Both the position numbers and the translations under genes were made by a program. DNA of 64,000 nt, from the IMG/VR virus record IMGVR_UViG_3300028591_000158, positions 21,044 through 85,043 of that record; one strand, given 5' to 3'. Positions 1 to 52,863 of this stretch are shown one piece after another (the stretch's first letter is position 1; the number at the start of each line of letters is the position of its first letter). The stretch comes from a virus. Lineage: Duplodnaviria; Caudoviricetes. The notes below the pieces were generated by a model. That model made no database searches and was not told the origin of the DNA. It was given only the letters and a program-made list of their open reading frames with translations.

Positions 1-1
1 T

Positions 2-484
2 ATTATTAATTGGCAGTATATATTAAGAGAATCTACTGAAGATGAAGTTGAAATGGCTTTTGCTAAAGCGAAAGAATTAGAAGTAGATAATTTATTTTTT
101 AAATTAACTTGGGAAAAAAGTTATGTTCCAAAAGATCCTGAAAGATTAAAAGATTTAACTGGACTTCAGGCTCTTACAAGAAATGAATTTAAAGAAAAAA
201 CAGGTAAACTATATAAGATGGAAAGATGCAAACAATTATTTGACTGCCCGACAATAAATTGGAATGGTGAATTGTTAGGCTGTTGCTCCAACAAGCACAC
301 ATTTGGAGTTAATGTTTTTGAAGTTGGTTTAGAAAATGCTTTAAATTTTTCAACATTTATGGATTCAAAAAATTGAGTTTTAAATATGTCTACTGATTTA
401 GATAATAATAATCCTTGTGCAAATTGTAAGCAGTATAAAAAAATAAAAGATTTTTTACAACCTAACACTATTATCAAAAAATAA
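2..484 (+). CDS. Radical SAM/SPASM protein, C-terminal part (5' end outside window)
   Basis: Reads through TGA at 374-376 to TAA 482-484. Clear paralog of 8719-9687 (WQYI.RESTE, CKQLFDCPTINWNGELLGCC, C-terminal CANC). Confidence 0.85.
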
Positions 485-494
485 GGAGTAAAAT

Positions 495-1628
495 ATGCAA
501 ATTGATTATGATAAACTTAATAAAGTTAATAATCAAAGCAATAGAAAAATAAGATTCATTACCATATTTTCATTAGATCTAGAAGATCATTTTTCACAAC
601 CTTTACATCAAATGTGTCTTGATAGTTGATATGAATGAAAAAATAATAATAAACAAATAAAAAATATTATTATTTTTAATGAAGATAGTCAAGAATATAA
701 AGATTTTTTAACTATATTTTTAAGTAACCCTTATAATAGAACTAACACAATACCGCGTAGATTGGCAAATGGGTTTAGAATGTACATTTTATCTAAATAT
801 AAAAATTATCTATGATTAGATAGTGATATGTATATAAACGACGTTAATTTTGAATGAAAAGCTGACATGTTATTTAGTGGTATATCTTGAAATATAGCTT
901 TTAATGGTGATCAATTAGACTTTTTCAAGGATATTTTTAATTTATTTTTAACTGAAAATTTAGGAACTTTAATTGATTGAGAAATTAGTTTAAAATACAA
1001 TTTACCATTTATATCATTTAATAAATTATTACACAATAATTGTTTTACTCATCTTTCCAAGTTTGATTTAGGACGTAGATGTTTTAGTATAAGTTATAAT
1101 GAAAATAATTCTAAAGAGATTATAAAATGTTATAATAATATAAAAAAAGCAGAAAATGAATACTATGAACATTTTAATTCTGATAAATCATGATACTTTA
1201 AATTTATTTATTATAAAATGCGTAACTTAATTAAACATATAAGTTTTATAACATCGGTTGTCCTAGAAAATTATGATAATTTTTATTTACGTTATATGCC
1301 AGATGACTTAAAAAACAAACTAAGGTTATTACAAATAAAATATCCTGATAAATACCAATATAAATTAGAATATTTAAATTCAGAATTATCCTGAATAAAT
1401 AGAAACATTAATACTATTAATTTTTTAGGTAATATGCTAGATAATAGGCAAGATATGTCTGATGATAGTATTATTTATAATTTTTTAAAATACATTAATT
1501 CACCATTAGCAAATCTCTTAGAAAATAAATATATTACAATTTCTGAAACAAAATATATTTTAAATGTGGGAGAGCTTACAGGTGAAGAATTAATAACAAA
1601 ACTTACTATATTTTTTATAGATAATTAA
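495..1628 (+). CDS. GT-A fold glycosyltransferase, GT32/OCH1-like
   Basis: RBS AAGGAG, ATG 495, open to TAA 1628 with 8 in-frame TGA. RMYILSKYKNYLWLDSDM resembles the GT32 R..ILY..GG.YLD.D motif. Confidence 0.65.
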
Positions 1629-1647
1629 AAAGAAAGGAGATTTAAAC

Positions 1648-2688
1648 ATGAAATTAACATACATATTGCCTACATGTGAACCTGATTCAATGTTTAAATT
1701 CCTTTTACCGACTATTTACTTACTAAAACCAATAAAACACTTATTAGAATTTAATATATGTTTTCAACCGCCCTATACTAAAAATGATATTAAAAAAGTA
1801 TTAGATGAATTTAAAAAATGTCACATAAAAGTTAATTATATGTTTAAAGATTATAAAGTTGTAAAACCTTATACTCCTTTAATTAAAATGAGAAATGATT
1901 GTGCTATGATGAGCCCTAATTCAGATATATATGGATTAATTGATGATGATATGTCTTTTGAAGACAAATCTATTTGTGGTTATATAAGAGATATGATTAA
2001 TAGATTTGAAACTGAGTCTAGCTTAGCAGCTATATCTTTTTATAATCAACCTGAAATGAATTATAGAGAAAATTTTTATTCAACTAATGCAGGTTTATTT
2101 TATAGGGGCGGTAAATACTATGGTTTTAAAGGCTTACTGCCAAAATATATAACTGAATTTAATAAAAAAGTTAATTTAAAAGTTCCTTATAATAATGAAA
2201 ACTTATTACGGTTGTTTGGCGGGCATCAAGATAAATTTTGTGCTATGACCAGACTTGCAACAGGTGATTATGGAGATTGTATAATTAATGTACCAGTAAA
2301 TCACTTAGAAAATAGAATTGCTCGTGGCGATAAAGCACATGGCTGAAAAGATGCTGAAATTTTAGAAGGATCAATAGCAAGCTTTATTGTAAAATATTTT
2401 AATAGTAGATTTATGGAAACACATGCTTTAACTTTATTTGATAAAGAAGAAGATGAATTAATTTATCCTTATAAATATGAAAATCATATTTTAAAAGAAG
2501 AGTATGATTTATATGATGATAGGGGTATTATTAAAGATTGGTTTAGCTCATTTAATATTAATTGAAAAGATAAAAGATTTATTAATAAATATAATTATTT
2601 AGAAAATATTGGTTTATTAGTTGAGCTACCAAAAGATCTTCAAGAGTTATTAGCTAATAAAGTAAATGAAATTTATAGTAAAGAGTAG
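1648..2688 (+). CDS. GT2-like glycosyltransferase
   Basis: N-terminal LTYILPT strand and GLIDDDM DxD motif. Reads through 2 TGA to TAG 2686-2688. Confidence 0.65.
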
Positions 2689-2696
2689 GAGTTATT

Positions 2697-3899
2697 ATGA
2701 TTGTAAATAGAGAGTATGATATATTTCTAATAACTAAAGATAACTGAAGAGAGCAAGAAAATTTATTTTTTGGATATAAGACAGTTGATAATGAAGGTAT
2801 GTGATTAGATGTTAAAAATATAAAAAATAAATTAATTATTACTGGAAGTTATATTCAACCTGCTATTGCTATCTATAATCAAAATAATTTCTGAGCAATT
2901 TCAAATAGTTGTAAGGTATTGGTAGATTATTTAACTGAAAATAATTACACTTTAACTAATAATGATGAATATATAGAACAAGATTTAGGCTTAGATGGAT
3001 ATGCTTTTAATTATCCTGAAATAAGTACTAAATGAAAAGAAATAAATTTAAATCCTAATTTTTCTCATATAGAAATCAGTAATGATAGTTTATATGTAAT
3101 AGAAGAAAAAGATAAAGAAAATTTATTGTTTAGCAAAGATTTAAAAGATGGCAAAGAAATAATAGATGAATGATTTAAAAAGTATTATTTTTATATATTT
3201 AAGGAATCAAGTAAAGATAATACTTATATAACTGCCTCAGTTTCTGGAGGCTTAGATAGTAGATTCTTAATTAATTTTTGAAAGAATGCTAAGATAAATA
3301 AAATTGTTTCTAAATGAGCTAAAAATGATACTGAGACAGGAAATCGAAGATATATTGACGGTCTAATTGCTAGGCTAGTAATATCAACTTATACTTCACA
3401 TAAAAGTAAAATAAATGCTAAACTTAGAACTGTTAATTTAGGAAAAACTACTATTCCAGAAATAGAGGATGAATTATTTTGGTATGGTATTGCTTATAAA
3501 CCTAATGAACAAATAACCATCAAGAAGGTAGATAAAAATTCAAATATAAAAACAACAATTTTGAGCCTTTCGGGTGTTGGCACTGAATGATTAAAAGCTG
3601 GTGCGGGTTGTAAAGATCCTAATTTTATTCTAGGTACAGCTAGAAGATTTTTTATTTCAAAATTTATTAAGGGATATTATTTAGGTAAATTGGCAACAAT
3701 ATTGCCTTACTTGGATTCAAGTTTATTACAACTAAGAGGTGTTGAAGATAATAGTTTTCTTTACTTATTATATTTGTTATATAGCCCAGAAATGTTAGAA
3801 ATTCCATTCTATAATAATACTCAAATATATGTGCCAATAGAAGCAGAATTGGAAAAAGCAAGGCTAATTTTAAGGGAGTGGAATAATGAAGGTATATAA
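2697..3899 (+). CDS. Asparagine-synthetase-like ATP pyrophosphatase, paralog 1
   Basis: SVSGGLDSR PP-loop. 8 in-frame TGA. N-terminal DIF..FFGYKTV..EG.WL motif shared with 3886 and 12722. Confidence 0.7.
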
Positions 3900-5034
3900 T
3901 GATATATTTTTTGTAATAGATACTAATAATTATAATGAAAATAAAAAAGATCTATTCTTTGGATATAAAACAGTAGAAAATGAAGGATTTTGATTGGCTG
4001 TAAAACATAGGCTAAGCAAAATTCATATTTATACTAGTTATATTTCACCAGTTATAATAATATATAAGAAAGATGATTATTGGGCTATAAGTAATAGTTG
4101 TTATTATTTAAATGAATTTTTAAAAGAAAAAGGAATTATTTTAGAAATTAATGAAAAATTTTTAGATTTAGAATCTAAGAAAAAAACTTCATTCAGCTAT
4201 GAATACTATAATGACATTTTATTATATAAAGATTTATTTATAAATAATAATGATGAAGAGATTGATATTATAAATGGTAAATTAACTTTAACAAAAAAAG
4301 ATTTTAAATTATTTGAAAAAGATATTAATTTAAACTTAGATATATTAAATAAGTGGTATGAAAAATATTACAATTATTTATTAAATAAAGATAATGTTAC
4401 TTTATCATTATCTGGCGGTTTAGGCAGTAGATTTTTATGGTATAATTTTTTAAGACAAAATAATAGCTGCAAATTATATTGCTATAATAATAAATCAAAT
4501 GTAACAGATTATTTAGACGGAAAATTAGCTAAGGAATTGATTAAGAAATATACTGATAAAAATTTACTAACTGTAGATAAAGAGCCTAACAGAAATGTAA
4601 AAACATTAGATTGTATAAATAACTTAGATATGAAAGAATTGAATCAATTTATTCTTGGTATCTCTTATAATCCAATGCTTTTAGTTAAGACTGAATGACT
4701 AAGAGTTGTAGGTACAGGTTCAAATATATTTAGGTATGAATTTCAAGACTTAAATTTTTTAAATGGAAATATCAGAAGAAACTGAGTAGCTTCATTTATT
4801 GCAAAACATTATTTAATTAATTGTGATCATATTACTCCATATATGGATTCTCTGCTATTACAATTAGATACAAAAGAACCTGACTATTTACATGTTATTT
4901 TATATTCATTATTTGCTAAAAGCTTATTAACTGATAATATACCATTTATTACTAAAAACAAAGTAGGTGAATATAAATTTCAAGAGTTTAGAAAAGAATT
5001 ATTTGAAAGATTTTCAAAAATAACTAATTTTTAA
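3886..5034 (+). CDS. Asparagine-synthetase-like protein, paralog 2 (PP-loop SGGLGSR)
   Basis: Joins track ORFs 3994-4698 and 4843-5034 in one frame through TGA. Paralogous motifs along the full length. Confidence 0.7.
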
Positions 5035-5044
5035 GAGGTAATTT

Positions 5045-6064
5045 ATGGCAATAGAATTTTATAAAATGAATAACATACTTTCAATTGAGCCTACTAAAGA
5101 TTATTTTATGATATGCTGACATATGACAGGCTGATGTAACTATCATTGCCATTATTGCATTGCAGAGCATTTGAGAACTAAGTGAATTGATGAAAATGTT
5201 ATAATAAAAAGAGCAATTAATTTAAATAATTTTATAAATAAAAATATTGATAAAAATAGAAAAATTGTTTATAAGCTATCTGGGGGGGAAGTTACATATT
5301 ATAACCTTCCTAAAATATTAGATAATATTCAAAGATTAGATAAAGTTATTGTTGCAACCAACTTATCTCAAAAGCTAGATTATTATTATGAGTTAGAAGA
5401 TTATTGTTTTAAAAGAAATATTCAATTAGTTTTATTATGTAGTTGGCATGATGAAAATAAAAATTTTGAAAATAAATTTATTGAATTAACAAATTGATGT
5501 CGAAGTAAGCCAAAGCAAAAATTTAATTATAAAGATCCGCAAGCCACAATTGTTGTTACAAAAAATTTTGATAAGACTAAGCTAAATAAGTTATTAGATA
5601 ATAATTTATGAAGGATAAGGCTAACTAGAGAACGTGATGCAAATCAAAAAAATGTTAGCTTAAGTAATGAAATGCTAGACTATGTATATGAGTATAATAG
5701 ATTGTATGATAGTAAAGCTATAACAAATGAAAAAAGCTTTTGTTACAAAGTTACTTATTCAAATGGAGAGCAAAAGTTTGCTTGCGCCTCCAATTTAACA
5801 AATTTTTTAGATTCCTCTGGTTTTATTCCAGATGGGTACTATTGCACGGCAGGTATTGACTCTATTGCAGTTCTTCCAAATGGAAATATTTCATTAGCAA
5901 GATGTGATTATTTAATTAATAATATCTTAGGGTCTATTGATAACTATGAAAATATTCAACTCCCAAAAGATGGCATAATATGTCACCTAAATGGTAACAG
6001 TTCTGAAAAAAATAAAAGATGTGATTTATGTGCAGGTACTAGACTATTCAAAAATAGGAGTTAA
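5045..6064 (+). CDS. Radical SAM protein with C-terminal Cys cluster (subfamily A)
   Basis: CNYHCHYC motif, LSGGEVTYY, C-terminal YC.AG and CxLC. TGA read as Trp. Confidence 0.9.
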
Positions 6065-6070
6065 ACTTTT

Positions 6071-7090
6071 ATGAGACTATATAAGAATAATGACATATTA
6101 GAAATAACTAATAAGACTAATTTTTTTAATATAACTTGGTATATAACAGGGTGGTGTAATTATCACTGTCCTTATTGTATAAATAGTAATATGAAATGTA
6201 GTTGAATAAGTGAAGAAATTATTCTTAATAGAGCCGAGAAATTAAATAACTTAATTAACGCCTTAAATATAGATAAACCAATATCTTTAAAATTACTTGG
6301 GGGTGAGGTAACCTACTATGATTTAATTGCAGTCTTAGATAAGATTAAAAAGCTTGCAAAAATTATATTAATAACTAATTTATCTCAGCCAATTAGTTAC
6401 TTTATTAATCTTGCTAGATACTTAGACTCAAGAGAAATAAAATTTATTTTAATTTGTAGTAAACATGAAGAAAATAATGAGTTTGATTCTAAATTTATAG
6501 CTTTAAATGATGAGCTAAAAAAGTTAAGAAAAGAAACAAACAGGAAATTTGCTTATTTTGAACCTCAGCTAAATATAGTGGTTGATAATAATTTTAATTG
6601 GAAGAGTCTCAGACTTTTTGAAGATGCTGGAATTAAAAAGATAAATCCTACTGTTATGAGAGATTTAAATGAAAAAAATTTAGATGTAACTATGGATACT
6701 TTACAGCATATAGACTATTATAAGCAAATACAGCTTGATTATTTTAAGCATAGTAAAGATACTAGTAAAGGTAATAAAGAGATAAATTATTCCTTTGATG
6801 TTAAGTTTAATACTAATACAGAAGAATTTACTTCATTACTTAATTTAACTAATTTTATTGATGCTAATGGATTTATTGGTACTGGCTATAATTGCTCATG
6901 TGGTATTAATACTCTTGCCATTTTACCAAATGGTAATATAGTAAAATCTAACTGTTTATATTTAGCTGATAAACCACTTGGAAATATCGATGATAATATT
7001 GACATAAAGCTAGATAATGAATTAGTTAAATGTAAACTTAAGCCAGAGCAGCGCTGTATCCTAGTAAGTGGAGCAAATATCTGTAAATAG
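6071..7090 (+). CDS. Radical SAM protein (subfamily A)
   Basis: WYITGWCNYHCPYC, LLGGEVTYY, YNCSCG and C-terminal Cys. Confidence 0.9.
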
Positions 7091-7108
7091 CTATGAAAGG
7101 ATTTTGAT

Positions 7109-8695
7109 ATGAAGATATTATGTTATAATATATCGCATGAATCAGCTTGAATGTATCATGATACAGAAACAAAAGAATTATATTTTTTTAGTGCTGAACG
7201 TGAATATAATACAAAAGATGCAACTATAAGAGAAACAGACCCAATTAAAATCGCAGAAATGAAATTTGGTTTTGATAAGAAAAATCCAGAGCACATTTTA
7301 GTTGGTTGAGTTAATTATTGAGGAACTTTCGTCGATAAAGAAAAGGCAAATATTCCTGAAACAAAATTATATAAAAAAATCAAAGATAATGTATTTGTTA
7401 TAGATCATCATTTTGCGCATATCTTATCAAGCGTTGCTTTTAATAACTCTTTAAATCAAGGTATTGCAATAGACGGTCAAGGTGATCATAAACATACTGG
7501 GTTAGTTGTCAAGAATATTCACGATTTAAACAATTTACAATTTAATTATCTTCCTAATGACCCTCCAATAGGAAAATTATTTAATATATTCTCAGCTGAT
7601 TTAATTAAAAGTAAATATATGACTACAACTGATGAATTAACTGATCGACATCGAGCTGTTGGAAAAATTATGGGATTACAAGCTTATGGAAAAATAAATC
7701 AAAGTATTTATAATAAATTAGAAAGTTTTGAATTTAGTCTAAATAATTTAAATCAATTTAAAAATTATTTTAGTGAGATATTTTCTAATATAAATGTTTA
7801 TGATGAAAATCAAAATTTTGATGCTGTAACTACCTTATATCAATTTTTAACAAATAAAATTGTTGAAATTTTTAATAATAATTTTAAAGCTGGTGATAAT
7901 ATTGCTTATTCTGGTGGTTGTGCATTAAGTACAGTGGCTAATGATAAACTAATAAAAAATGGATATAATCTAACTATATGTCCTGCAGCTGGAGATATGG
8001 GATTATGTATTGGTATGTTAAAATTTATAGATTTATATTATAATTTAAATATAGATTTTTCAAATTTAAAATATGCATATTATAATGATGAACCAAATAT
8101 TATAATACCAGAAAAAAATATTAAATTTGCAGCTAAATTATTACAACAGAATGAGATAATAGCATTTGTTAATGGGGCTGCTGAAGTAGGTCCTAGAGCA
8201 TTAGGTCATAGATCTATATTAATGAATCCTTCTATTGAAAATGGCAAAGATTTTATTAATGAAAGAGTTAAACATAGAGAATGATGAAGACCATTCGGTG
8301 GATCAACAATTGATACTAAAATTATTAAGAATTACATTCCATCGAATTTAGATTTCTTTATGTTAAGAAATTATGAGATAAAGGACGAATGACAAACTAA
8401 ATTAAAGAGCATTTGTCACAAAGATAATTCATGTAGATTACAGATAATTGAAGATAAGTTAGAACCTTTATACCAAGTAATAAATGAATTTAACAACTTA
8501 ACAGGTGTTCCTGTTGTATTAAATACATCATTTAATATTGCTGGCAGACCAATTCCTAATTATAAAAAACATATTATGGAAACATTTAAGGCATTAGATG
8601 GAATAAAATATCTTTTTTATAATGATAAAATATATAAGAAAGAAAATATTTCTAAATATGGCGGAGTAATAGATATTGTTGAAGTACAATTATAA
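7109..8695 (+). CDS. NodU/CmcH/TobZ-family carbamoyltransferase
   Basis: SHES, ER, DHHFAH, IDGQGD, GKIMGLQAYG, SGGCALS, PAAGDMG, EVGPRALGHRSIL, HREWWRPFG (both W are TGA), LNTSFNIAG. Confidence 0.93.
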
Positions 8696-8718
8696 GTAAA
8701 TTGAGGCAGTGCATTATT

Positions 8719-9687
8719 ATGAAATATATGATTAGATTAGACATATGTACACTATGTACTTTAAATTGTGTAGCATGTCCTATTAGAAAAATAAACTATG
8801 GTAAATTAAAAGCTGGATATGTTAAATTTGAAATATTTAAAAAATTTATTGATGAAAATTTAGAATTAATACGAAAGATTGAAATATCAAGTGCTGGAGA
8901 ACCTTTATTAAATCCGGACTTGATTAAAATTTTAAAATATGCTTATGAAAATAATATTGTAATTACTTGTAGAAATGGAACTAATTTTAATTCATTAGAT
9001 GATGCCAAAATTAAGGCTTTAGTTGACTATAAGGTAGAGGATATTGTATTCGCGTGTGATGGGGCAACACAGGAAACATATCAAAAATATCGAAGAAATG
9101 GTGATATTAATAAGGTATTTGATTCAGTTAGAAAAATACAAGAATATAAGAAAAAAATTAATTCAGAATATCCTAGATTAATTTGACAATACATTATTAG
9201 AGAATCAACTGAAAGTAAAGAAGAAATTGAGTTGGCTAAAAAGTTAGCAAAGGAATTTAATGTTGAACTTAAATTCAAACTTACACACGAAATTAATTAC
9301 ACACCAAAAAATTCGCAAGAATTGAAGGAAATAACTGGATTAAAATATGTTACTAGAAAAGAAGCAGCTGATAATGGAGAATATTATTTAACAGCTTCAA
9401 AATGTAGACAATTATGGAATTCACCAGCTATAAATTGAAATGGAGATTTATTGGGATGCTGCTGAAATTGAGAACCATTTAATATAAATGTATTTGAAGT
9501 TGGATTAGCAGAGGCTCTAAAAAATAAAGAATACTGTAAAGCAAAAATGTATCTGAGCGATAAAATTGAAAATGATAAATCTATACCATGCATGAATTGT
9601 GAGTTTGGAGAAATTGTTCATAATAATCATTTAATTGATGATTGTTGAATTAAAACTCATGATCCACATTATAATAAGGAAAATTAA
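8719..9687 (+). CDS. Radical SAM/SPASM protein (subfamily B)
   Basis: CTLNCVACP, GEPLLNP, ACDG.TQETYQKYR.NG, SPASM-type CRQLW..P.INWNG.LLGCC. Stop TAA 9685-9687. Confidence 0.9.
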
Positions 9688-9690
9688 ATT

Positions 9691-10482
9691 ATGAAAAAAG
9701 ATATTAATAGATTGATTATAAATGAAACAGAAAATAAACCAATTTTAAATTATATAGAAACAAATATTGTTATGCATTGTAATTTAAATTGCAGAGGTTG
9801 TAATCATTTTGCTCCGTTATATTCTGAAAATGAAGATATGATTGATTTTGATAGATGAACCAAAGCTGTTGATCGAATAGCTGAAATGTTTGAAATTAAA
9901 AAATTTGGTATTTTAGGTGGTGAACCTTTACTTCATCCAAGATGACTAGATTTTTTAAGATATTTGCGAAATAAACTACCTAATGCTTTATTAACATTTA
10001 GAACAAATGGTATTTTAAGCAATCTATTAGTAGCAAATAAAAAAGAACTAGAAGACTTAAAAGTAGAATTAGTTATAAGTGATTACAACTTAAGCTTAAA
10101 TATTGACAAATCACTTTTTAATAGAACATTCGACAGAATAAAAACAAAATTTGAACACCCTTCTATAGATTCTGAAGGAAATCAAAGTAAAACAGACAGT
10201 TGATTACAGTGTAGAAATAAGCATTGTTTAGCTTTAACTGAAGATTATATCTATTGTTGTAATTATGGTCTGTCTTTTAACAAATTAAATGAATATTTTG
10301 ATTTAAAAATAGATATAAATGATGATGTAAAAATTAATATATTTAATTCAAGTGCAAATGATATAATTAAATGAACAAGACACGCTAAAGATTGTTGTAA
10401 ATATTGTAATTTAAATAATAGAAAATATGATCAAGAATGAGGATTAAGTAAAAAAGAAAAATCTGAATGAATTATTAATTAG
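9691..10482 (+). CDS. Radical SAM protein (subfamily C)
   Basis: HCNLNCRGCNHF, ILGGEPLLHP, TNG, C-terminal CCKYC. Stop TAG 10480-10482. Confidence 0.9.
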
Positions 10483-10492
10483 AGGTAATATT

Positions 10493-11521
10493 ATGTTTAA
10501 AAGTTCTGATATAGTTGCTATAATTAAAGATCAAAATAACGCAATGTTTGATTTAAGCTGAAAATTAACTTCGTGGTGTAATTATAACTGCTCTTATTGT
10601 AGTCAAGAAACAAGACAAAAAAAATTTAATTCACAGCCTATATTAGAAGCACGGGCAAAGAATATAGATAAAATTATTAATCAGTTATCAAACAAAAAAG
10701 CAATTCAATTATCTTTAATTGGTGGAGAGATTACTTATTATAATTTAATAGATATTTTAAAAAATATAAATTTATCTAAAATTTTTAAAATAAGACTTAC
10801 TACTAATTTCAGCCAAGATAACAATTATTTTATAGAACTTTTAGATTTTTTATATAAACAGAATAATAATTTAAAAATTACTCTCACTTTATCATTTCAT
10901 GATGAATATATACCATTATCATCATTTTTAAATAAAGTTGTTAAACTTCATGAAAGTATACAGACTAAATATAATAATAAATCTAAAGTTAAACTCAATG
11001 TATCATTAGTAATAAATAACGAGTTAGACTGTACTTTATTAAAACAATTTATTACTAATTATCCTAAATTAACTATTTGTCCTAACATACAACGTGATAT
11101 AAATGGAAAGATTGTTGATCTAGATAAAGAGCATATGGAATTTAAAACTAACTTAACCACTAAAGAAAATTTTAAAACTAATAAAATACTACTAATATTA
11201 AAATCAAATAAACATATTTATTTTTCTGATACTAGTACTATTCTTAATAATATAGATGAAAAAGTGTTTATATCAAAAGGCTACTTATGTAGTGCTGGTT
11301 TAAATAATCTTAGAATTGATGAAAATGGTAACATTCGAAGAGGACAGTGTCCATTAGAATTAAGCAAAAATATAGTAGGAAATATAGATAATGATAAAAA
11401 TATTATATTACCAACTGAACCAATTAAATGTTCTTTCGAAAATAGTAGCATTAAATCAGGATGTATTCTATGCCCTTGGGTAAATATTAAAATTGATACT
11501 GAGGAAGGCATAAAACCATAA
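10493..11521 (+). CDS. Radical SAM protein (subfamily A)
   Basis: WKLTSWCNYNCSYC, LIGGEITYY, YLCSAG, CILC. Confidence 0.9.
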
Positions 11522-11635
11522 TGAAAAAAAAATAAAAGAAATTAAAAATAAATTAATAGTTAAGTGTCAGTAAGATAGCTGTCCTTTTTGTGGTATAATC
11601 CATATCTGAAAATAGAAATGGGGTTGTAAAATAAA

Positions 11636-12649
11636 GTGTATAAACAAGATGACATTAAATCTATAAATTTAATAAATAATGATTTTTTTGTAATTAAATG
11701 ATTTGTAACAAATTGGTGTAATTACAGTTGTTCATATTGTATTCAAAATCCCAGAGATAAAGCCGGCTGAATTTCAGAAAATAAAGTAATAGAAATTGCT
11801 AAAAAGTTAAATGAAGCCCTTTATAACTCTAATATTACAAAAAGAATTTCTTTACAAATATTAGGTGGAGAAGTAACATTTTATAATTGATCAAAAATAT
11901 TACCTTATATAGAAAATGTTGGTAAAGTATTTATAACTACCAACTTTTCAAATACTTTAGAATATTATAAAGGTTTATATACTTATTGTTATTCTAATAA
12001 TATTGTCTTAAAATTATTATGTAGCTATCATGAAACAGGAGATGAGTTTTTTACTAAATTTATAGAATTAAAACATTGGTGTGCAGATAATAAATATCAC
12101 CTTCCTAATCTATCTTTTGTAGTGGGAAATGATTTTGATTTTACTATATTTGATAGATTTCCTGAGATAGCAAATAAAAGAGCTAGTATGTGCCCCTTAG
12201 TTCTCCCCGATCAAAGTACAGTAAAATTAAATGAAGGGGTAATAACTAAAATCAAAGAGATTAAAAGTAGAAAAGCAAATAATAGTAAACAAGAATTAAA
12301 AACTAGAGCTGAAAAATTTATTTTTAAAATTAATGATGACTTTATTGTTTGTAGTGCTCCAGAATTATTTGTAAATTTAGAAAAGGGTTATTTAGATATT
12401 AAAAAAGTATATTGTGATGCAGGCATTAATTCTATTAGTATTGATCCTGATGGTAGTATTACACGATGTGGTAATAATTCGCAATTACTTGGTAATTTAT
12501 TAACAATGGAGAATCCTAAGTTTAATTTAAAATCAAGTATCTGCGAAGATAAACAATGTAGATTGTGCCAACCTGTAAATATATGTAGAGTCATTGATTC
12601 AACCGATGATCCATTTATAAGGAGGGATAGGACATGCCCAAAGAAGTAA
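11636..12649 (+). CDS. Radical SAM protein (subfamily A)
   Basis: GTG start after GGGGT. WFVTNWCNYSCSYC, ILGGEVTFY, YCDAG, CRLC. Confidence 0.88.
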
Positions 12650-12732
12650 TTACAATAAAAGCTAATCCTGGTAATGATAAATCTTTTAAAGATAATCATA
12701 TAGAAAGAGAGAAAGATACTAATGAATTATAA
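12634..12732 (+). CDS. 32-aa small ORF (MPKEVITIKANPGNDKSFKDNHIEREKDTNEL)
   Basis: Strong RBS GGAGGGA. Overlaps the upstream stop and the downstream start, as expected for translational coupling. Confidence 0.5.
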   Translation: MPKEVITIKANPGNDKSFKDNHIEREKDTNEL

Positions 12733-13891
12733 AGATTTTGATATATTCTTAATCACAAAAGATAATTGAAAAAGTCAAGATGAAGTTTTTTATGGCTATA
12801 AGACTTTAGATGACAATGGGCTTTGATTAAAAGTATTTTGAGAGGATAGTTGCTTATTAATTAAGGGCAGTTATATTCAGCCTTATATTAGTATTTATCA
12901 ATCAGATGATTACTGGGCTATTTCTAATAATTTTTATTGTTTAGAACAACATTTAATTAGTAAGAATATTAAGCTTACTAAAAATAAAGCATTTGAAGAA
13001 TGGGACAAAGATTCTTTTAGGTTCTGTATTCAAGCAAGTCCAACAGAAACTTTATATAATGAAATTAAATTTAATGATAATTTTTCTTATTTAAAAATAT
13101 TAGATGGTAATTTAGAAATTATAAACTTGGAAATAGATTGCTTTACAAAACCTTTAGAGGATTCAAAAGAAGATTTATTAAATTGATATAAAAAATATTA
13201 TGATTATTTGCATACTTTACCCGAAGGTACTGTATCAGCCCAACTATCTGGCGGATTTGATTCAAGAATATTACTACCATTGTATGAAGATATAAATGGA
13301 GTCAGTATAAACGCACAGTGGAATAAAGAAGATGATGATAGTTATCGTGATGGATTAGCCGCAAGATTATATATTGCAAAAAAATATCCGCACTTATTTG
13401 ATAATTTACTTTCAAAAGAAGATAAAACTTGAGTTGCTAATAATGATAAGGCTAAACAAGAAAATGCAAAATTAATAACGCAATTTATCACTTATGGTTC
13501 ATATCCTATAAAAGGTGAGCTAGACTTATCAAATATGATGCCTTGTAAATCAACTAGTGGTAAAATAAGCTTAGCTGGAATGTCTCTTGAATTACATAAA
13601 AATAATCTAGCTAATAGCGTGCAAGAAATTGAAACAACTACAAGAAGATATTTTGTAAATAGATATTTAATTAGATATTATAGATCAAAACAAAGAGTAG
13701 TATGTCCTTTTCAAGATAAGGAATTATTAAAGATTAAAGGTTGTCGTGATTTAACATTTGTTTATATATTATTAGGATTATTTAATATTAACGATGAAAA
13801 ATTACCATATTATACTTATTTAAATAGTAAACCAGTTTTAAAGTTTGTTTCAAATGAAGAGATAGAAGAGGCGTTATCTTTATTAAAATAA
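12722..13891 (+). CDS. Asparagine-synthetase-like ATP pyrophosphatase, paralog 3
   Basis: LSGGFDSR PP-loop. Joins track ORFs 13208 and 13535 through TGA. Same N-terminal motif as paralogs 1 and 2. Confidence 0.7.
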
Positions 13892-32671: not shown

Positions 32672-33856
32672 ATGAGCAAAATAAAAACTAGAACAAGATA
32701 TAAAATTGTTGGTTCAGATTATTCTGCTCAGGAATAGCCTGAGCCACGATTAGCCGCATATATGTCTCAAGATCCAGAAATGAAAAAAGTTTATTTTGAA
32801 GGTAAAGATTTATATGCTAGAATTGCTCAGTCAGCATTTAACAATGATTATGCTGATAATCTAGAATTTTATCCAGAAGGAACTGAGCTTGAAATTGATG
32901 GTAAAAAAGTAATAGCTGGTAAAAAAACTCATAAAAATCCTGAGGGAAAAAGTCGACGTTCTGTTGGAAAAACATTACTTTTAGCAGCAAATTATGGCAT
33001 GGGACCTAAGACTGCTGGTGAAAAAATGGGTAAATCTGCTAAAGAAGGTGGTGAACTACTAGAGAGCTTTTTCAAAGGCTTTCCAGTTTTAAAACAAACT
33101 ATTGAAGAATCAAAAGTATTCTTAAAAAAGAATGGCTATGTTGAAGATGCATTTGGTAGACGTAGGCATATTCCAGAAATCAATGAAAAGCCGTATGATG
33201 CAAGGTATGCTGATGAGAAAAAAGTTGAAGAATTAACTTTTAATCCATTTTTAAATTGTAATAATAGAACTTTTACAGATGATAAATTAAATAAATATAT
33301 TACACTTGCAAAAAACACTAGAAATAATGAAGACTTTGATAAATTAGCTAGAGAGGCTGATCGAGATGGAATTATATTAACAGCTAACACTGGTAGAATA
33401 GCCCAAGCTGAAAGACAATGTTTTAATGCAAGAATTCAGGGTTCAGCAGCTTCACTTACTAAGCTAGCAATGGTTAATATATTTAATGATGCATTATTAA
33501 AAGAATATAAAGCTGACTTAATTATTTCAGTACATGATGAAGTATTAGTTGAGTGCCCAGATTATTATGCTGACAAAGTTGAAGAACGTTTGCCAAAAAT
33601 TATGATTGATACAGCTAAGCCATATATTGATATTCCGATGAGTTGTGACCCTTATAATGTTACCCGTTGGTATAGTGATGAAATGGCTGCACAGCTAAGA
33701 GAAGAACTAGATAAAATGGAAAAAGGTGATCCAGATAAAAATATACCACCAATTGCACATGATATTGCAGTTCAAAATATTTATAAAGATCATTGTGAAA
33801 TTCCAAAAGAAGCTATAGACAAATGTTTAGCAAGTAATGATGATTTAGAGTTTTAA
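32672..33856 (+). CDS. polA: Family A DNA polymerase, C-terminal part, with in-frame TAG at 32735-32737 inside motif A
   Basis: MSKIKTRTRYKIVGSDYSAQE*PEPRLAAYMSQD, motif B RSVGKTLLLAANYGM, NARIQGSAA, motif C VHDE. Confidence 0.88.
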
Positions 33857-49962: not shown

Positions 49963-50733
49963 ATGTGCGAAATTATAACAGATATAGAAAAATTGAATGA
50001 ACCATCTAGCCCATTACAATTTTTAGATGGCGAAGTTACACATAAAGAAGAGGGAATTGAAATAATTAATAAATTAAAAAGTGCATTAGAGCAAAATAAA
50101 GATTTATTAGCTATTTCAGCACCTCAAATTGGAATTAATAAAAGAGTTATTTGTATAAAATTTAATGATGTTATAAAAACTTTCATTAATCCAATATTAA
50201 CTAAGAAAAAAGGAATGGTAATTGCTCCTGAAACCTTCTATGGCATGACTGGAAAAGAGATTTTAATTGGAAGACCTGAAGAAATATCACTTGTTTATTA
50301 TAATGAAGACTTTAAGTATGAAGATAATAAATTATTAGGACTTGCAGCTAGACTTTTTGACCAACAATATCAATTATTAGACGGTATAACACCAGCAGAT
50401 CTTGGACTTGTATCAGATGTTGAAGCAGATGGCTCAATTTTTAATCTAACTGATGAAGAATTTAATGAACTTGCTGAATTTTATAAAAATTATGTGGCTG
50501 TAAAATCAAAAGCAGCAAAAGAACAGCTAGATACAGATGAGGAAGTTGCAAAAAATTATAAGTCTTTGAAATTTTCTGAAGATGTTATCAATGGTAGAAC
50601 TTTAATAATTGATGAAGCTGATACAGAAGCAGTTGCTCAAAAGAATAGAACAATGAATTTTTATAAAAATCAATCAAAAAAGCAAGCTCACCAAATAGAA
50701 TTACAAAATTTTACTAAAAAACACAGAAAGTAG
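49963..50733 (+). CDS. def: Peptide-deformylase-like protein with degenerate active site
   Basis: AISAPQIG..KR.I, FINP, RPEEI...Y, GLAARLF...LDGI. EGCLS is ETFYG and HEIDH is QQYQL. Confidence 0.82.
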   Translation: MCEIITDIEKLNEPSSPLQFLDGEVTHKEEGIEIINKLKSALEQNKDLLAISAPQIGINKRVICIKFNDVIKTFINPILTKKKGMVIAPETFYGMTGKEILIGRPEEISLVYYNEDFKYEDNKLLGLAARLFDQQYQLLDGITPADLGLVSDVEADGSIFNLTDEEFNELAEFYKNYVAVKSKAAKEQLDTDEEVAKNYKSLKFSEDVINGRTLIIDEADTEAVAQKNRTMNFYKNQSKKQAHQIELQNFTKKHRK

Positions 50734-50744
50734 GAGGTAACTAT

Positions 50745-50963
50745 ATGACAGAAGAATATATTAAGGACTTTAGTGGCTATATTTTAGGTTATATCGTGCA
50801 TGAAGACAATGGGGACGAAAAAGTAGTTGATTTTGATACTAGAAAAGTGCTTGGTTATTATAAAGCATCTGAAAATACTACAAGAGAATTTTCTGGTAAA
50901 ATAGTTGGACGTGGAAATAGACTATCTGAATTATTATATAAAGAAAAGAATAAAAATAAATAA
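50745..50963 (+). CDS. Hypothetical protein
   Basis: RBS AGGAGGT. Internal repeat (DFSG.ILGY / EFSGKIVG). Confidence 0.7.
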   Translation: MTEEYIKDFSGYILGYIVHEDNGDEKVVDFDTRKVLGYYKASENTTREFSGKIVGRGNRLSELLYKEKNKNK

Positions 50964-50984
50964 TAGTATAAGAGGCAAATATTA

Positions 50985-52863
50985 ATGGCAATTCAAATTA
51001 ATAAAGATACTAAAATATTAATACTTGTGGAGTCTCCCTAACAAGGTAAAAACTGTCCAATCTATTGTAAAAAAACTGGGTTATACTAAAACAATGGTTG
51101 CTGCAACAATAGGACATACAACTAGAATTAAAGATAATAAAAACAGCTATAAAAACTCAGGAATTCATCCAGATAATAATTTTAAAATTGACTGAGAAGT
51201 ATCACCTGATAAACAAAAAGTTATTGAAGAGTTAAAAGCTAAAGCAAAAGCTGTTGATTTAGTCCTAATTGCATCAGACCCCGATAGAGAGGGAGAATGT
51301 TTAGGTAATCAAGTCAAAAATGTATTAAAATTAAAAGATAGTCAATACTATAGAATTACTTATCATAGTGTAACTGAGACAGATATTAAAAAAGCACTTG
51401 AAAATCCAACAAAAATGAATTTAAAATTATGTGAAGCTGCCGAATCTCGTGCAGCAGTAGATAAACTTGTTGGTTATTCATTAAGTCCAATTGCTAGAAT
51501 GTATATTGGAGCAAAATCTGTTGGCAGATGTCAGTCAGCAGGGCTTAAATTAGTTGCAGATCGTGAAAAAGAGATAATTGATTTTAAACCAGAACAATAT
51601 TTTGATATTTATTTAAAATTTAGTAAGAATAATGCTAATTTTAAAGCAAAATATATTGGTACTGATAAAGAAAAAATTGATCATTTAAAAAATATAGATG
51701 ATGTTAATGCAGTTAAAATTGGTTGTGCTAAAAGTAAATTTATTGTAAAAGATGTTACTAAAAAAGAGAGACAAGAAAGTCCAAAGCCACCATTTTCTAC
51801 TATTACATTTCAACAAGAGGCAGCTAGTAAACTAAATTTAAAAATAAAAGATGCTATGTCATGTGCTCAAAAGTTATTTGAAGGTATAAATGTTAATGGT
51901 GAACATATCGGTTTAATAACTTATCACAGAACAGACTCAACTGATCTTGCAGAAGACTTTATACCAGTCTTAAAGAATTATATAACTGATACCTATGGTC
52001 AAAAATCTTTTGTAACACCTAGAATTGGTAAAAAAACTGGTGATGAACAAGAAGGACATGAGGCATTAAGAGTTGTAGACCCAAGCATGACTCCAGAAAA
52101 GCTTGCACAGTATTTACCAAATGATTTATATATAAAAGTATATAAGCTAATTTGGCAAAGAACTATTGCTTCAGCTCTTCCTAATGCTGTTTTCTCTGAA
52201 ACTATATATACTATATATAATAACATTTATAAATTTAGTATGACCTCAAATGAGCTAGTTTCAGCTGGTTTTAAGACTGTTTATAATTATTCAGACGATC
52301 AAGATGATGAAAATCAAGTTGTAAAAGAAAGCTTCAAAGAAAATGAAGAATTGCAAAATACTTTACTTGAAGATATTTCAAAAACAACTACACCACCTGC
52401 AAGATATACTGAAGCTAGCCTAGTTAATGCACTAAAAAAATATGGTATAGGTAGACCTTCTACTTTTGCTACAATAGTTGAAACAGTTCTAAGCCCAGTA
52501 AGAAACTATGCTACCTTAGATGGCAAGTCTATTGTACCAACAGATAAAGGAATGCAGCTTGCAGCATTTTTAGATAGATCATTTTCTAATATAATAAATT
52601 TAAACTATACAAAACAAATGGAAGATTCACTTGATGCTATTGCTAATGGTAAATTAGATCATCTTGAGTTCTTAAATGGCTTTTTTAAGGATTTAACAAC
52701 TACTATAAGCAATAATACAGAAACTGGCTTTGCAGAGACAGTAGCCCCTAAAAAGTGTCCTAAATGTGGAAGTGATTTAGTGGTTAGACGTAGTCGCTTT
52801 GGAACCCTATTTAGAGGCTGTAGTGGCTATCCTAAGTGTAATTACACAGAATCAGTTGAATAA
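50985..52863 (+). CDS. topA: Type IA DNA topoisomerase, needs a +1 frameshift at CCC-TAA (51036-51041)
   Basis: 0-frame ILILVESP*. +1 frame NKVKT..., GH, ASDPDREGE, SVGRCQS, ITYHRTDS, HEALR, GIGRPST, C-terminal zinc ribbon. Confidence 0.93.

Follow-up and report, generated by a model that had tools for sequence, protein, structure and literature searches.

To our knowledge, few genes, cellular or phage-borne, depend on an obligatory +1 frameshift, and prfB is the textbook case. The Shine-Dalgarno (SD)-like element of prfB (AGGGGG) ends 3 nt before the shift codon of CUU_UGA_C, at codon 26. Phage +1 frameshifts mostly add extensions to structural proteins, and the one well-known phage topoisomerase gene that is recoded is gene 60 of T4. 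The features of the +1 frameshift in prfB, which encodes release factor 2, are a short 0-frame ORF, an SD-like element and a stop codon with a 3′ C (PMC5009743). In gene 17.1/17.1* of phage SPP1, a +1 shift at CCCUAA (~25% shifted) extends the tail-tube subunit C-terminally (PMC6316719), a genuine precedent that had already been invoked in the initial annotation of the locus described here. The tsh gene of the Listeria phages PSA, A118 and A500 undergoes +1 frameshifting at CCC_UGA, and T4 gene 60, encoding a topoisomerase II subunit, is read across a 50-nt bypass in which peptidyl-tRNA-Gly hops with a nascent-peptide signal (PMC5009743). Full-text literature searches turned up no topoisomerase I gene described as undergoing programmed frameshifting. 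Here we describe a phage topA gene that, judged by comparison with its relatives, probably carries a conserved and obligatory +1 ribosomal frameshift of the prfB type.

A split topA gene in a phage with genetic code 4

The gene lies in a window of 64,000 nt, the whole stretch of DNA that was analysed, which belongs to an IMG/VR virus record of 85 kb that is estimated to be 38% complete. The window has a GC content of ~27% and every gene on one strand, and its ORF coverage rises from 0.82 to 0.96 when it is read with code 4; the in-frame TGA codons show that the phage uses this code (TGA = Trp). The source is a jumbo phage of the gut or rumen with code 4, and its complete relatives measure 220-233 kb. 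Close to topA are genes for a DnaB-like helicase, a family A polymerase, a Rad50/SbcC-like ATPase and a deformylase-like protein. A chromosomal Mollicute topA, suspected from code 4 and the 27% GC, was ruled out by the virus record and the phage replication genes, and the earlier assignment of the topoisomerase to a phage holds.

The surroundings of topA follow a conserved order (deformylase-like gene, one or more small ORFs, topA, an unknown gene and an AAA ATPase gene) in the window and in L004, L006, L035, L036, L041, L042 and L123. In the window the deformylase-like gene occupies 49963-50733 and a small ORF 50745-50963, and some relatives have several small ORFs. The deformylase-like protein reached 42 bits with NCBIfam, far under the cut-off, and may not be an active enzyme. 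Positions 1-13891 of the window hold a big block of co-oriented genes including a Nol/TobZ-like carbamoyltransferase (phrog_1601, 319 bits), possibly a DNA-modification island as the initial annotation proposed.

A stop codon also interrupts the split family A DNA polymerase. Its second gene has an in-frame TAG at 32735-32737 (within 32672-32760 of the window) inside motif A (DYSAQE*PEPRLAAY), which the initial annotation had flagged as a separate observation and where relative L126 reads DYSAQEPRI; the window has a 9-nt insert, TAG CCT GAG, between GAA and GAG. The ribosome might make a short hop at this TAG or read through it. The polymerase relatives were obtained by a search within five complete relatives, a single-protein scan having been unproductive.

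In topA, the ATG at 50985-87 opens a 0 frame whose 18 sense codons read MAIQINKDTKILILVESP and are followed by TAA at 51039-41. The sequence at 51021-51047 is ...ATA CTT GTG GAG TCT CCC TAA CAA GGT..., and the features of the locus are as follows.

50970..50975, plus strand: Shine-Dalgarno-type ribosome-binding site AAGAGG of topA, with a 9-nt spacer to the ATG
50985..51041, plus strand: short 0-frame ORF MAIQINKDTKILILVESP plus TAA, encoding the first TOPRIM beta-strand and the catalytic Glu of ESP
51027..51044, plus strand: recoding cassette GTGGAGTCTCCCTAACAA, an 18-mer that is invariant in all frameshifted alleles while its flanks vary
51029..51032, plus strand: internal SD-like GGAG, put forward as the stimulator; its distance to the shift codon is 3 nt, as in prfB
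51033..51035, plus strand: spacer and E-site codon TCT (Ser of ESP), invariant in frameshifted alleles
51036..51038, plus strand: shift codon CCC, from which the P-site peptidyl-tRNA-Pro is proposed to re-pair with CCU at 51037-51039
51039..51042, plus strand: 0-frame stop UAA with its 3′ C, a weak termination context; the post-shift codon AAC (51040-42) is Asn
51040..52863, plus strand: +1-frame body of topoisomerase IA, 607 codons plus TAA, with the rest of TOPRIM, Topoisom_bac and the C4 zinc ribbon

The body is open in the +1 frame from 51040 to the TAA at 52861-63, and the two pieces join between P and N of the conserved ...VESPNK... motif. Slippage from CCC to CCU yields VESP-NKVKT and puts back the catalytic TOPRIM glutamate; taking CCCT as a single proline gives a fused protein of 625 aa (P0243). 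CCC and CCU are both proline codons, so the P-site tRNA can re-pair at +1. A −2 shift was rejected, as it would produce VESPPNK, which mismatches the family motif ESPNK. Upstream of the slip site the +1 frame is open for 6-12 codons only. A search for CCC or CCT followed by a stop and an open +1 continuation returned topA as the sole case in the window, the record's first 20 kb, L042, L021 and L004.

The codons of the signal are disfavoured in the window, where usage is 4.9% for GTG (Val), 18.9% for GAG (Glu), 23.9% for TCT (Ser), 2.3% for CCC (Pro) and 12.5% for AAC (Asn). Only 2 of 69 genes terminate at TAA-C, which ties with TAG-C and TAG-A as one of the rarest stop contexts, and CCC directly precedes the stop in no long ORF of the window (n=69). 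A GGAG, GAGG or AGGA motif is found within 20 nt upstream of 47 of these 69 ORFs, indicating that the host ribosome uses SD pairing and could pair with the internal GGAG. The initial annotation had stated that the 0 frame ends after 18 codons, that a +1 slip gives VESP-NKVKT and the rest of an intact topoisomerase, that GGAG ends exactly 3 nt before CCC, and that GTG and GAG are disfavoured in this AT-rich genome; the sequence, the positions and the codon usage given above agree with each of these statements.

From its profile matches, the product is a bacterial-type DNA topoisomerase I (type IA). The +1 body alone scored 514.2 bits against TIGR01051 topA_bact (cut-off 456.4), and Toprim, Topoisom_bac and C4 zinc ribbon were the Pfam domains detected in the topA product. 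The Toprim match increased from 35.5 bits (profile positions 10-94) for the body alone to 48.6 bits (positions 2-94) for the fusion, and alignment of the fused P0243 with the solved topoisomerase I 6ozw_A was gapless across the junction (KILILVESPNKVKTV to KNLVIVESPAKAKTI). The window gene has one TGA=Trp codon, W70 of the fused protein. Catalysis by type IA topoisomerases requires the Glu of the ESP motif (E9 in E. coli TopA). The N-terminal TOPRIM strand with this conserved Glu exists only in the fusion of the 0-frame and +1-frame pieces, and a protein starting 3′ of the slip site should be inactive because that Glu is catalytic.

All elements of a prfB site are present, and the architecture resembles that of prfB in its short 0-frame ORF (18-25 codons in phage topA, 25 in E. 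coli prfB) closed by a stop with a 3′ C, a body lying wholly in the +1 frame, an SD-like element 3 nt before the shift codon and a throw-away unshifted peptide. It differs from prfB in its shift codon (CCC rather than CUU), in its stop (UAA, read by RF1 and RF2, rather than UGA) and in its SD-like element, which consists of GGAG alone; topA is here a phage gene with mostly in-frame relatives, and its product is not the stop-reading factor, hence there is no direct autoregulatory loop. With SPP1 the locus shares the heptamer, in which a rare CCC overlaps the frequent CCU and is followed by UAA, and an AT-rich, SD-using host (PMC6316719). In SPP1, however, the site stands at the end of a complete gene and both products are functional, whereas in phage topA it stands 18 codons in, within a catalytic motif, where function is possible for the shifted product alone; a 5′ SD stimulator is unmentioned for SPP1 in PMC6316719. 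The Listeria phages likewise have a P-site tRNA-Pro that slips +1 at a rare CCC beside a stop, in low-GC hosts, but in structural genes with two isoforms, and their UGA stop is a sense codon in the window phage. T4 gene 60 is also a recoded phage topoisomerase gene with an event that starts at a stop near the 5′ part, although it encodes a type II enzyme and has neither sequence nor mechanism in common with the topA slip site.

Conservation of the signal and competing readings

The best 120 protein relatives are nearly all 605-631 aa long with an in-frame ...ESPNK..., and the 0-frame leader aligns with the N-termini of ~115 in-frame relatives (...ILVIVESPNK...). One relative starts with MWSLPNK (P0029), which is the +1 reading of GTG GAG TCT CCC T AAC, and another, P0002, is truncated and begins MVAATIGH. 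The contigs of these odd-start proteins are L004 and L005, and both carry GTGGAGTCTCCCTAACAA at the equal place. Scanning JGI metagenomes with the 18-mer gave four matches, three of them topA with the same arrangement (L021, L023 and L024), and truncated gene calls among relatives of L021 and L004 led to L041, L042 and L122/L123, all with the 18-mer. The L122/L123 allele is present on seven contigs of up to 257.6 kb. A locus search with a single protein gave only 30%-identical loci, and an alignment query was required. Of the 12 matches to GGAGTCNCCCTAACAA in IMG/VR and the 10 to the 16-mer in GTDB (one genome per prokaryote species), all were chance matches and none lay in topA; by the GTDB result, the slip site was not found in cellular topA genes.

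The 18-mer thus occurs at the same ESP position in nine loci besides the window (L004, L005, L021, L023, L024, L041, L042, L122 and L123), ten loci in all from separate samples and assemblies (JGI, ENA, Logan), and it is unchanged across at least 5-6 lineages. GGAG with its 3-nt spacer TCT is invariant in 10/10 loci, as is TAA-C. Conservation stops exactly at the edges of the signal: the codon before it is CTT, ATT or ATC, and the Lys codon after it is AAG or AAA. The frameshifted enzymes are 52-84% identical, with saturated synonymous sites (pS 0.6-0.75, dS > 1) and a dN/dS of 0.06-0.3 between alleles, which places the +1 body under purifying selection. A dS above 1 together with the low dN/dS indicates that these genes were kept functional for long while bearing the extra base. 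The 0-frame leader is conserved as protein, its differences being synonymous, which indicates that coding moves from frame 0 to +1 exactly at the slip site. An 18-letter signal kept in such distant relatives argues for a selected decoding signal and not an error.

The frameshifted form is confined to ~3-5% of the relatives, while ~95% are in frame, so the shift is dispensable for the family. In-frame relatives spell V-E-S-P-N with many codon sets (n=64 distinct), in which GTG is used in 16%, GAG in 30%, TCT in 38% (24/64) and CCC in 11% (product 0.0019), and GGAG stands at the slip-site position in 3 of the 64. The Asn codon is AAC in all frameshifted alleles and AAT or AAC (16 and 14) in in-frame relatives. 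The initial annotation had asked whether homologous phage topA genes keep GGAG-NNN-CCC-TAA or uniformly lack the extra base; most do lack the base, the motif is invariant in the ten loci that have it, and comparison with relatives supports the prfB-like programmed +1 frameshift that was originally suggested.

We built a maximum-likelihood tree from the gene body only, excluding the leader and ESP columns, with seven frameshifted rows. The tree requires at least 6 changes of state between frameshifted and in-frame, and in it the frameshifted L005 and L021 are joined, with strong support, to in-frame sisters (P0082 and P0123, respectively). P0123 is 95% identical to the L021 enzyme and has another leader (MEDLKSKK... 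versus AKDNNLGNTVNLKDSK...), and the in-frame P0003 is 70% identical to the window enzyme. In L005, L021, L023, L024 and L123, the bodies share 67-78% identity, against 86-99% for the 81 nt upstream of the site (ribosome-binding site and leader); leader and site, conserved far above the body, behave as a 5′ cassette, which is either exchanged between phages or constrained much more strongly than the enzyme. The window and L004 share with the L005/L021 group only the 18-mer, their leaders being unrelated, and the signal is thus present in at least 3 leader contexts. This comparative evidence marks the slip site as an element under selection: several lineages keep it unaltered, and within one clade it moves with its leader as a 5′ cassette.

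Three further observations concern these and related alleles. In the clade of L005, L021, L023, L024 and L123 (the 'AKxNN-leader' clade), the topA bodies are without any TGA and the contigs are nonetheless code 4, which may reflect early, standard-code-compatible expression. A stable, clade-specific 5′ hairpin joins the leader codons GAC TCC to GGAGUC in the slip signal, at −12 to −17 kcal/mol (z −3 to −4.7), and has an inner pair that covaries (U-A versus C-G); it lies at L005:459-491, L123:2909-2941 and, on the minus strand of L021, in the homologous stretch just before the site, and it is absent in the window and L004. The third observation comes from a 45%-identical topA in L077 (IMGVR_UViG_3300011008_000004, 214 kb), which has an in-frame TAA at exactly the slip-site position, directly after the ESP proline codon; its site (1489-1506) has 6 extra bases, GAA TCG CCT TAA CTT AAC AAA (VESP*LNK), and is the sole such sequence in IMG/VR. 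This TAA could be another recoding event, a readthrough site or a defect.

The same conservation bears on the best of the competing readings, that a one-base insertion arose in alleles already reading GTG GAG TCT CCN AAC and that slippage compensates for it, being corrective with no control role. Frameshifting of the 'corrective' or 'savior' kind is an established category (PMC5009743), GTG GAG TCT CCA/CCC is found in some in-frame relatives (L052-54, L090), most relatives manage without a shift, and a tolerated indel with efficient slippage would give an identical sequence picture. Yet loss of one base would restore the frame and the state has persisted through saturated synonymous divergence, the site recurs in at least three leader contexts, and in one clade conservation of the leader and site far exceeds that of the gene, which resembles positive maintenance. 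We regard such a compensated indel as improbable.

Much less probable still is quadruplet decoding, in which a phage tRNA-Pro with an enlarged anticodon loop would read CCCU like the sufA/sufB-type suppressors. Arrays of 6-33 tRNA genes, tRNA-Pro(UGG) among them, are present in complete relatives, and a tRNA of the enlarged-loop kind could be encoded elsewhere in the genomes concerned, since the allele-bearing fragments are incomplete and ARAGORN detected no tRNA genes in any of them. The anticodons that ARAGORN gave in the sampled arrays were only ordinary ones, however, and a four-base reading would leave the invariant GGAG at 3 nt, the stop-making T and the 3′ C unexplained.

A sequencing or assembly error, or a decaying pseudogene, might be suspected since the extra base lies within a C run and the window is a single metagenome contig. 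The same base was present in ten loci from different samples and assemblers, the 600-codon +1 frame is intact with the dN/dS given above, and flanking synonymous positions are frozen, which makes this explanation scarcely credible. Equally hard to credit is translation of an N-terminally truncated enzyme from a +1-frame start (TTG 51025 or ATG 51094) or by re-initiation: TTG TGG... does occur in the +1 frame of the window and L004, and such starts were picked by gene callers (P0029, P0002), but the start is not conserved because the L005/L021/L123 clade has TCG for the window's TTG, the protein would be without the first TOPRIM strand and the conserved Glu, and the 0-frame leader is conserved as protein and has its own ribosome-binding site.

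Proposed mechanism and meaning for recoded phages

With an obligatory prfB-type frameshift as the preferred reading, the steps at the site may be envisaged as follows. ATG 50985 can serve as the start of translation, and once 18 codons have been read CCC would occupy the P site and UAA-C the A site. Release factors would read UAA followed by C slowly, while GGAG 3 nt upstream would pair with the 16S anti-SD of the translating ribosome and peptidyl-tRNA-Pro on the rare codon would slip from CCC to CCU. AAC would be decoded next, giving ...ILILVESP-NKVKT... and the full 625-aa enzyme, and terminating ribosomes would release only an 18-residue peptide. A point against this scheme is that the SD-like element is only 4 nt long. 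A 3′ RNA stimulator was looked for and none was found, the downstream folds being no stabler than shuffles and the consensus fold empty; Rfam gave no match, and a promoter and terminator scan stayed at background level.

Under this scheme the yield of enzyme would equal the initiation rate multiplied by the frameshift efficiency, which should depend on release-factor activity and on the supply of tRNA-Pro. By analogy with prfB and SPP1, it is a reasonable inference that termination and frameshifting compete and so determine how much topA product is made, and our best guess is that this links topA expression to how the infected cell is terminating and decoding. The phage family interferes heavily with translation, through code 4, the tRNA genes of complete relatives and, in one of them, RF1. 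A topoisomerase reads no stop codons, so this would not be autoregulation of the prfB type, and the regulatory rationale is speculative because there is no obvious feedback link from topoisomerase I to termination at UAA.

A more far-reaching proposal, which we consider rather unlikely but worth stating, is that the slip site senses release-factor activity and ties topoisomerase I synthesis to the genetic-code change of the phage. Phages that read UGA as Trp must blunt RF2. Some TGA-recoded phages encode RF1 (bioRxiv 10.1101/2021.08.26.457843), and a full-length release factor 1 is encoded in a 232-kb complete relative of the window phage (G003, L130:877-1938; NF001859, 472 bits against a 400-bit cut-off). 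If the proposal held, the efficiency of termination at UAA-C, and hence frameshifting, would vary in the course of infection and turn topA on or off at a given stage; the topA slip site and the TAG in polymerase motif A might share one 'termination-state' switch, and the leader-plus-site cassette would be a portable regulatory module swapped between phages.

For annotation, the locus warns against taking such topA genes for pseudogenes or truncated genes, gene callers having given fragments of 572-609 aa. As an 18-nt, naturally validated +1 cassette, the signal would be a compact tool for studying SD-stimulated slippage at UAA. The locus joins the architecture of prfB and the CCC_UAA slip site of SPP1 on a DNA-replication enzyme, within its catalytic motif, and the genomes that host it are those of giant phages with an altered genetic code, tRNA arrays and sometimes a release factor. 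It may in this way offer a testable link between the manipulation of release factors by recoded phages and the timing of replication-gene expression.
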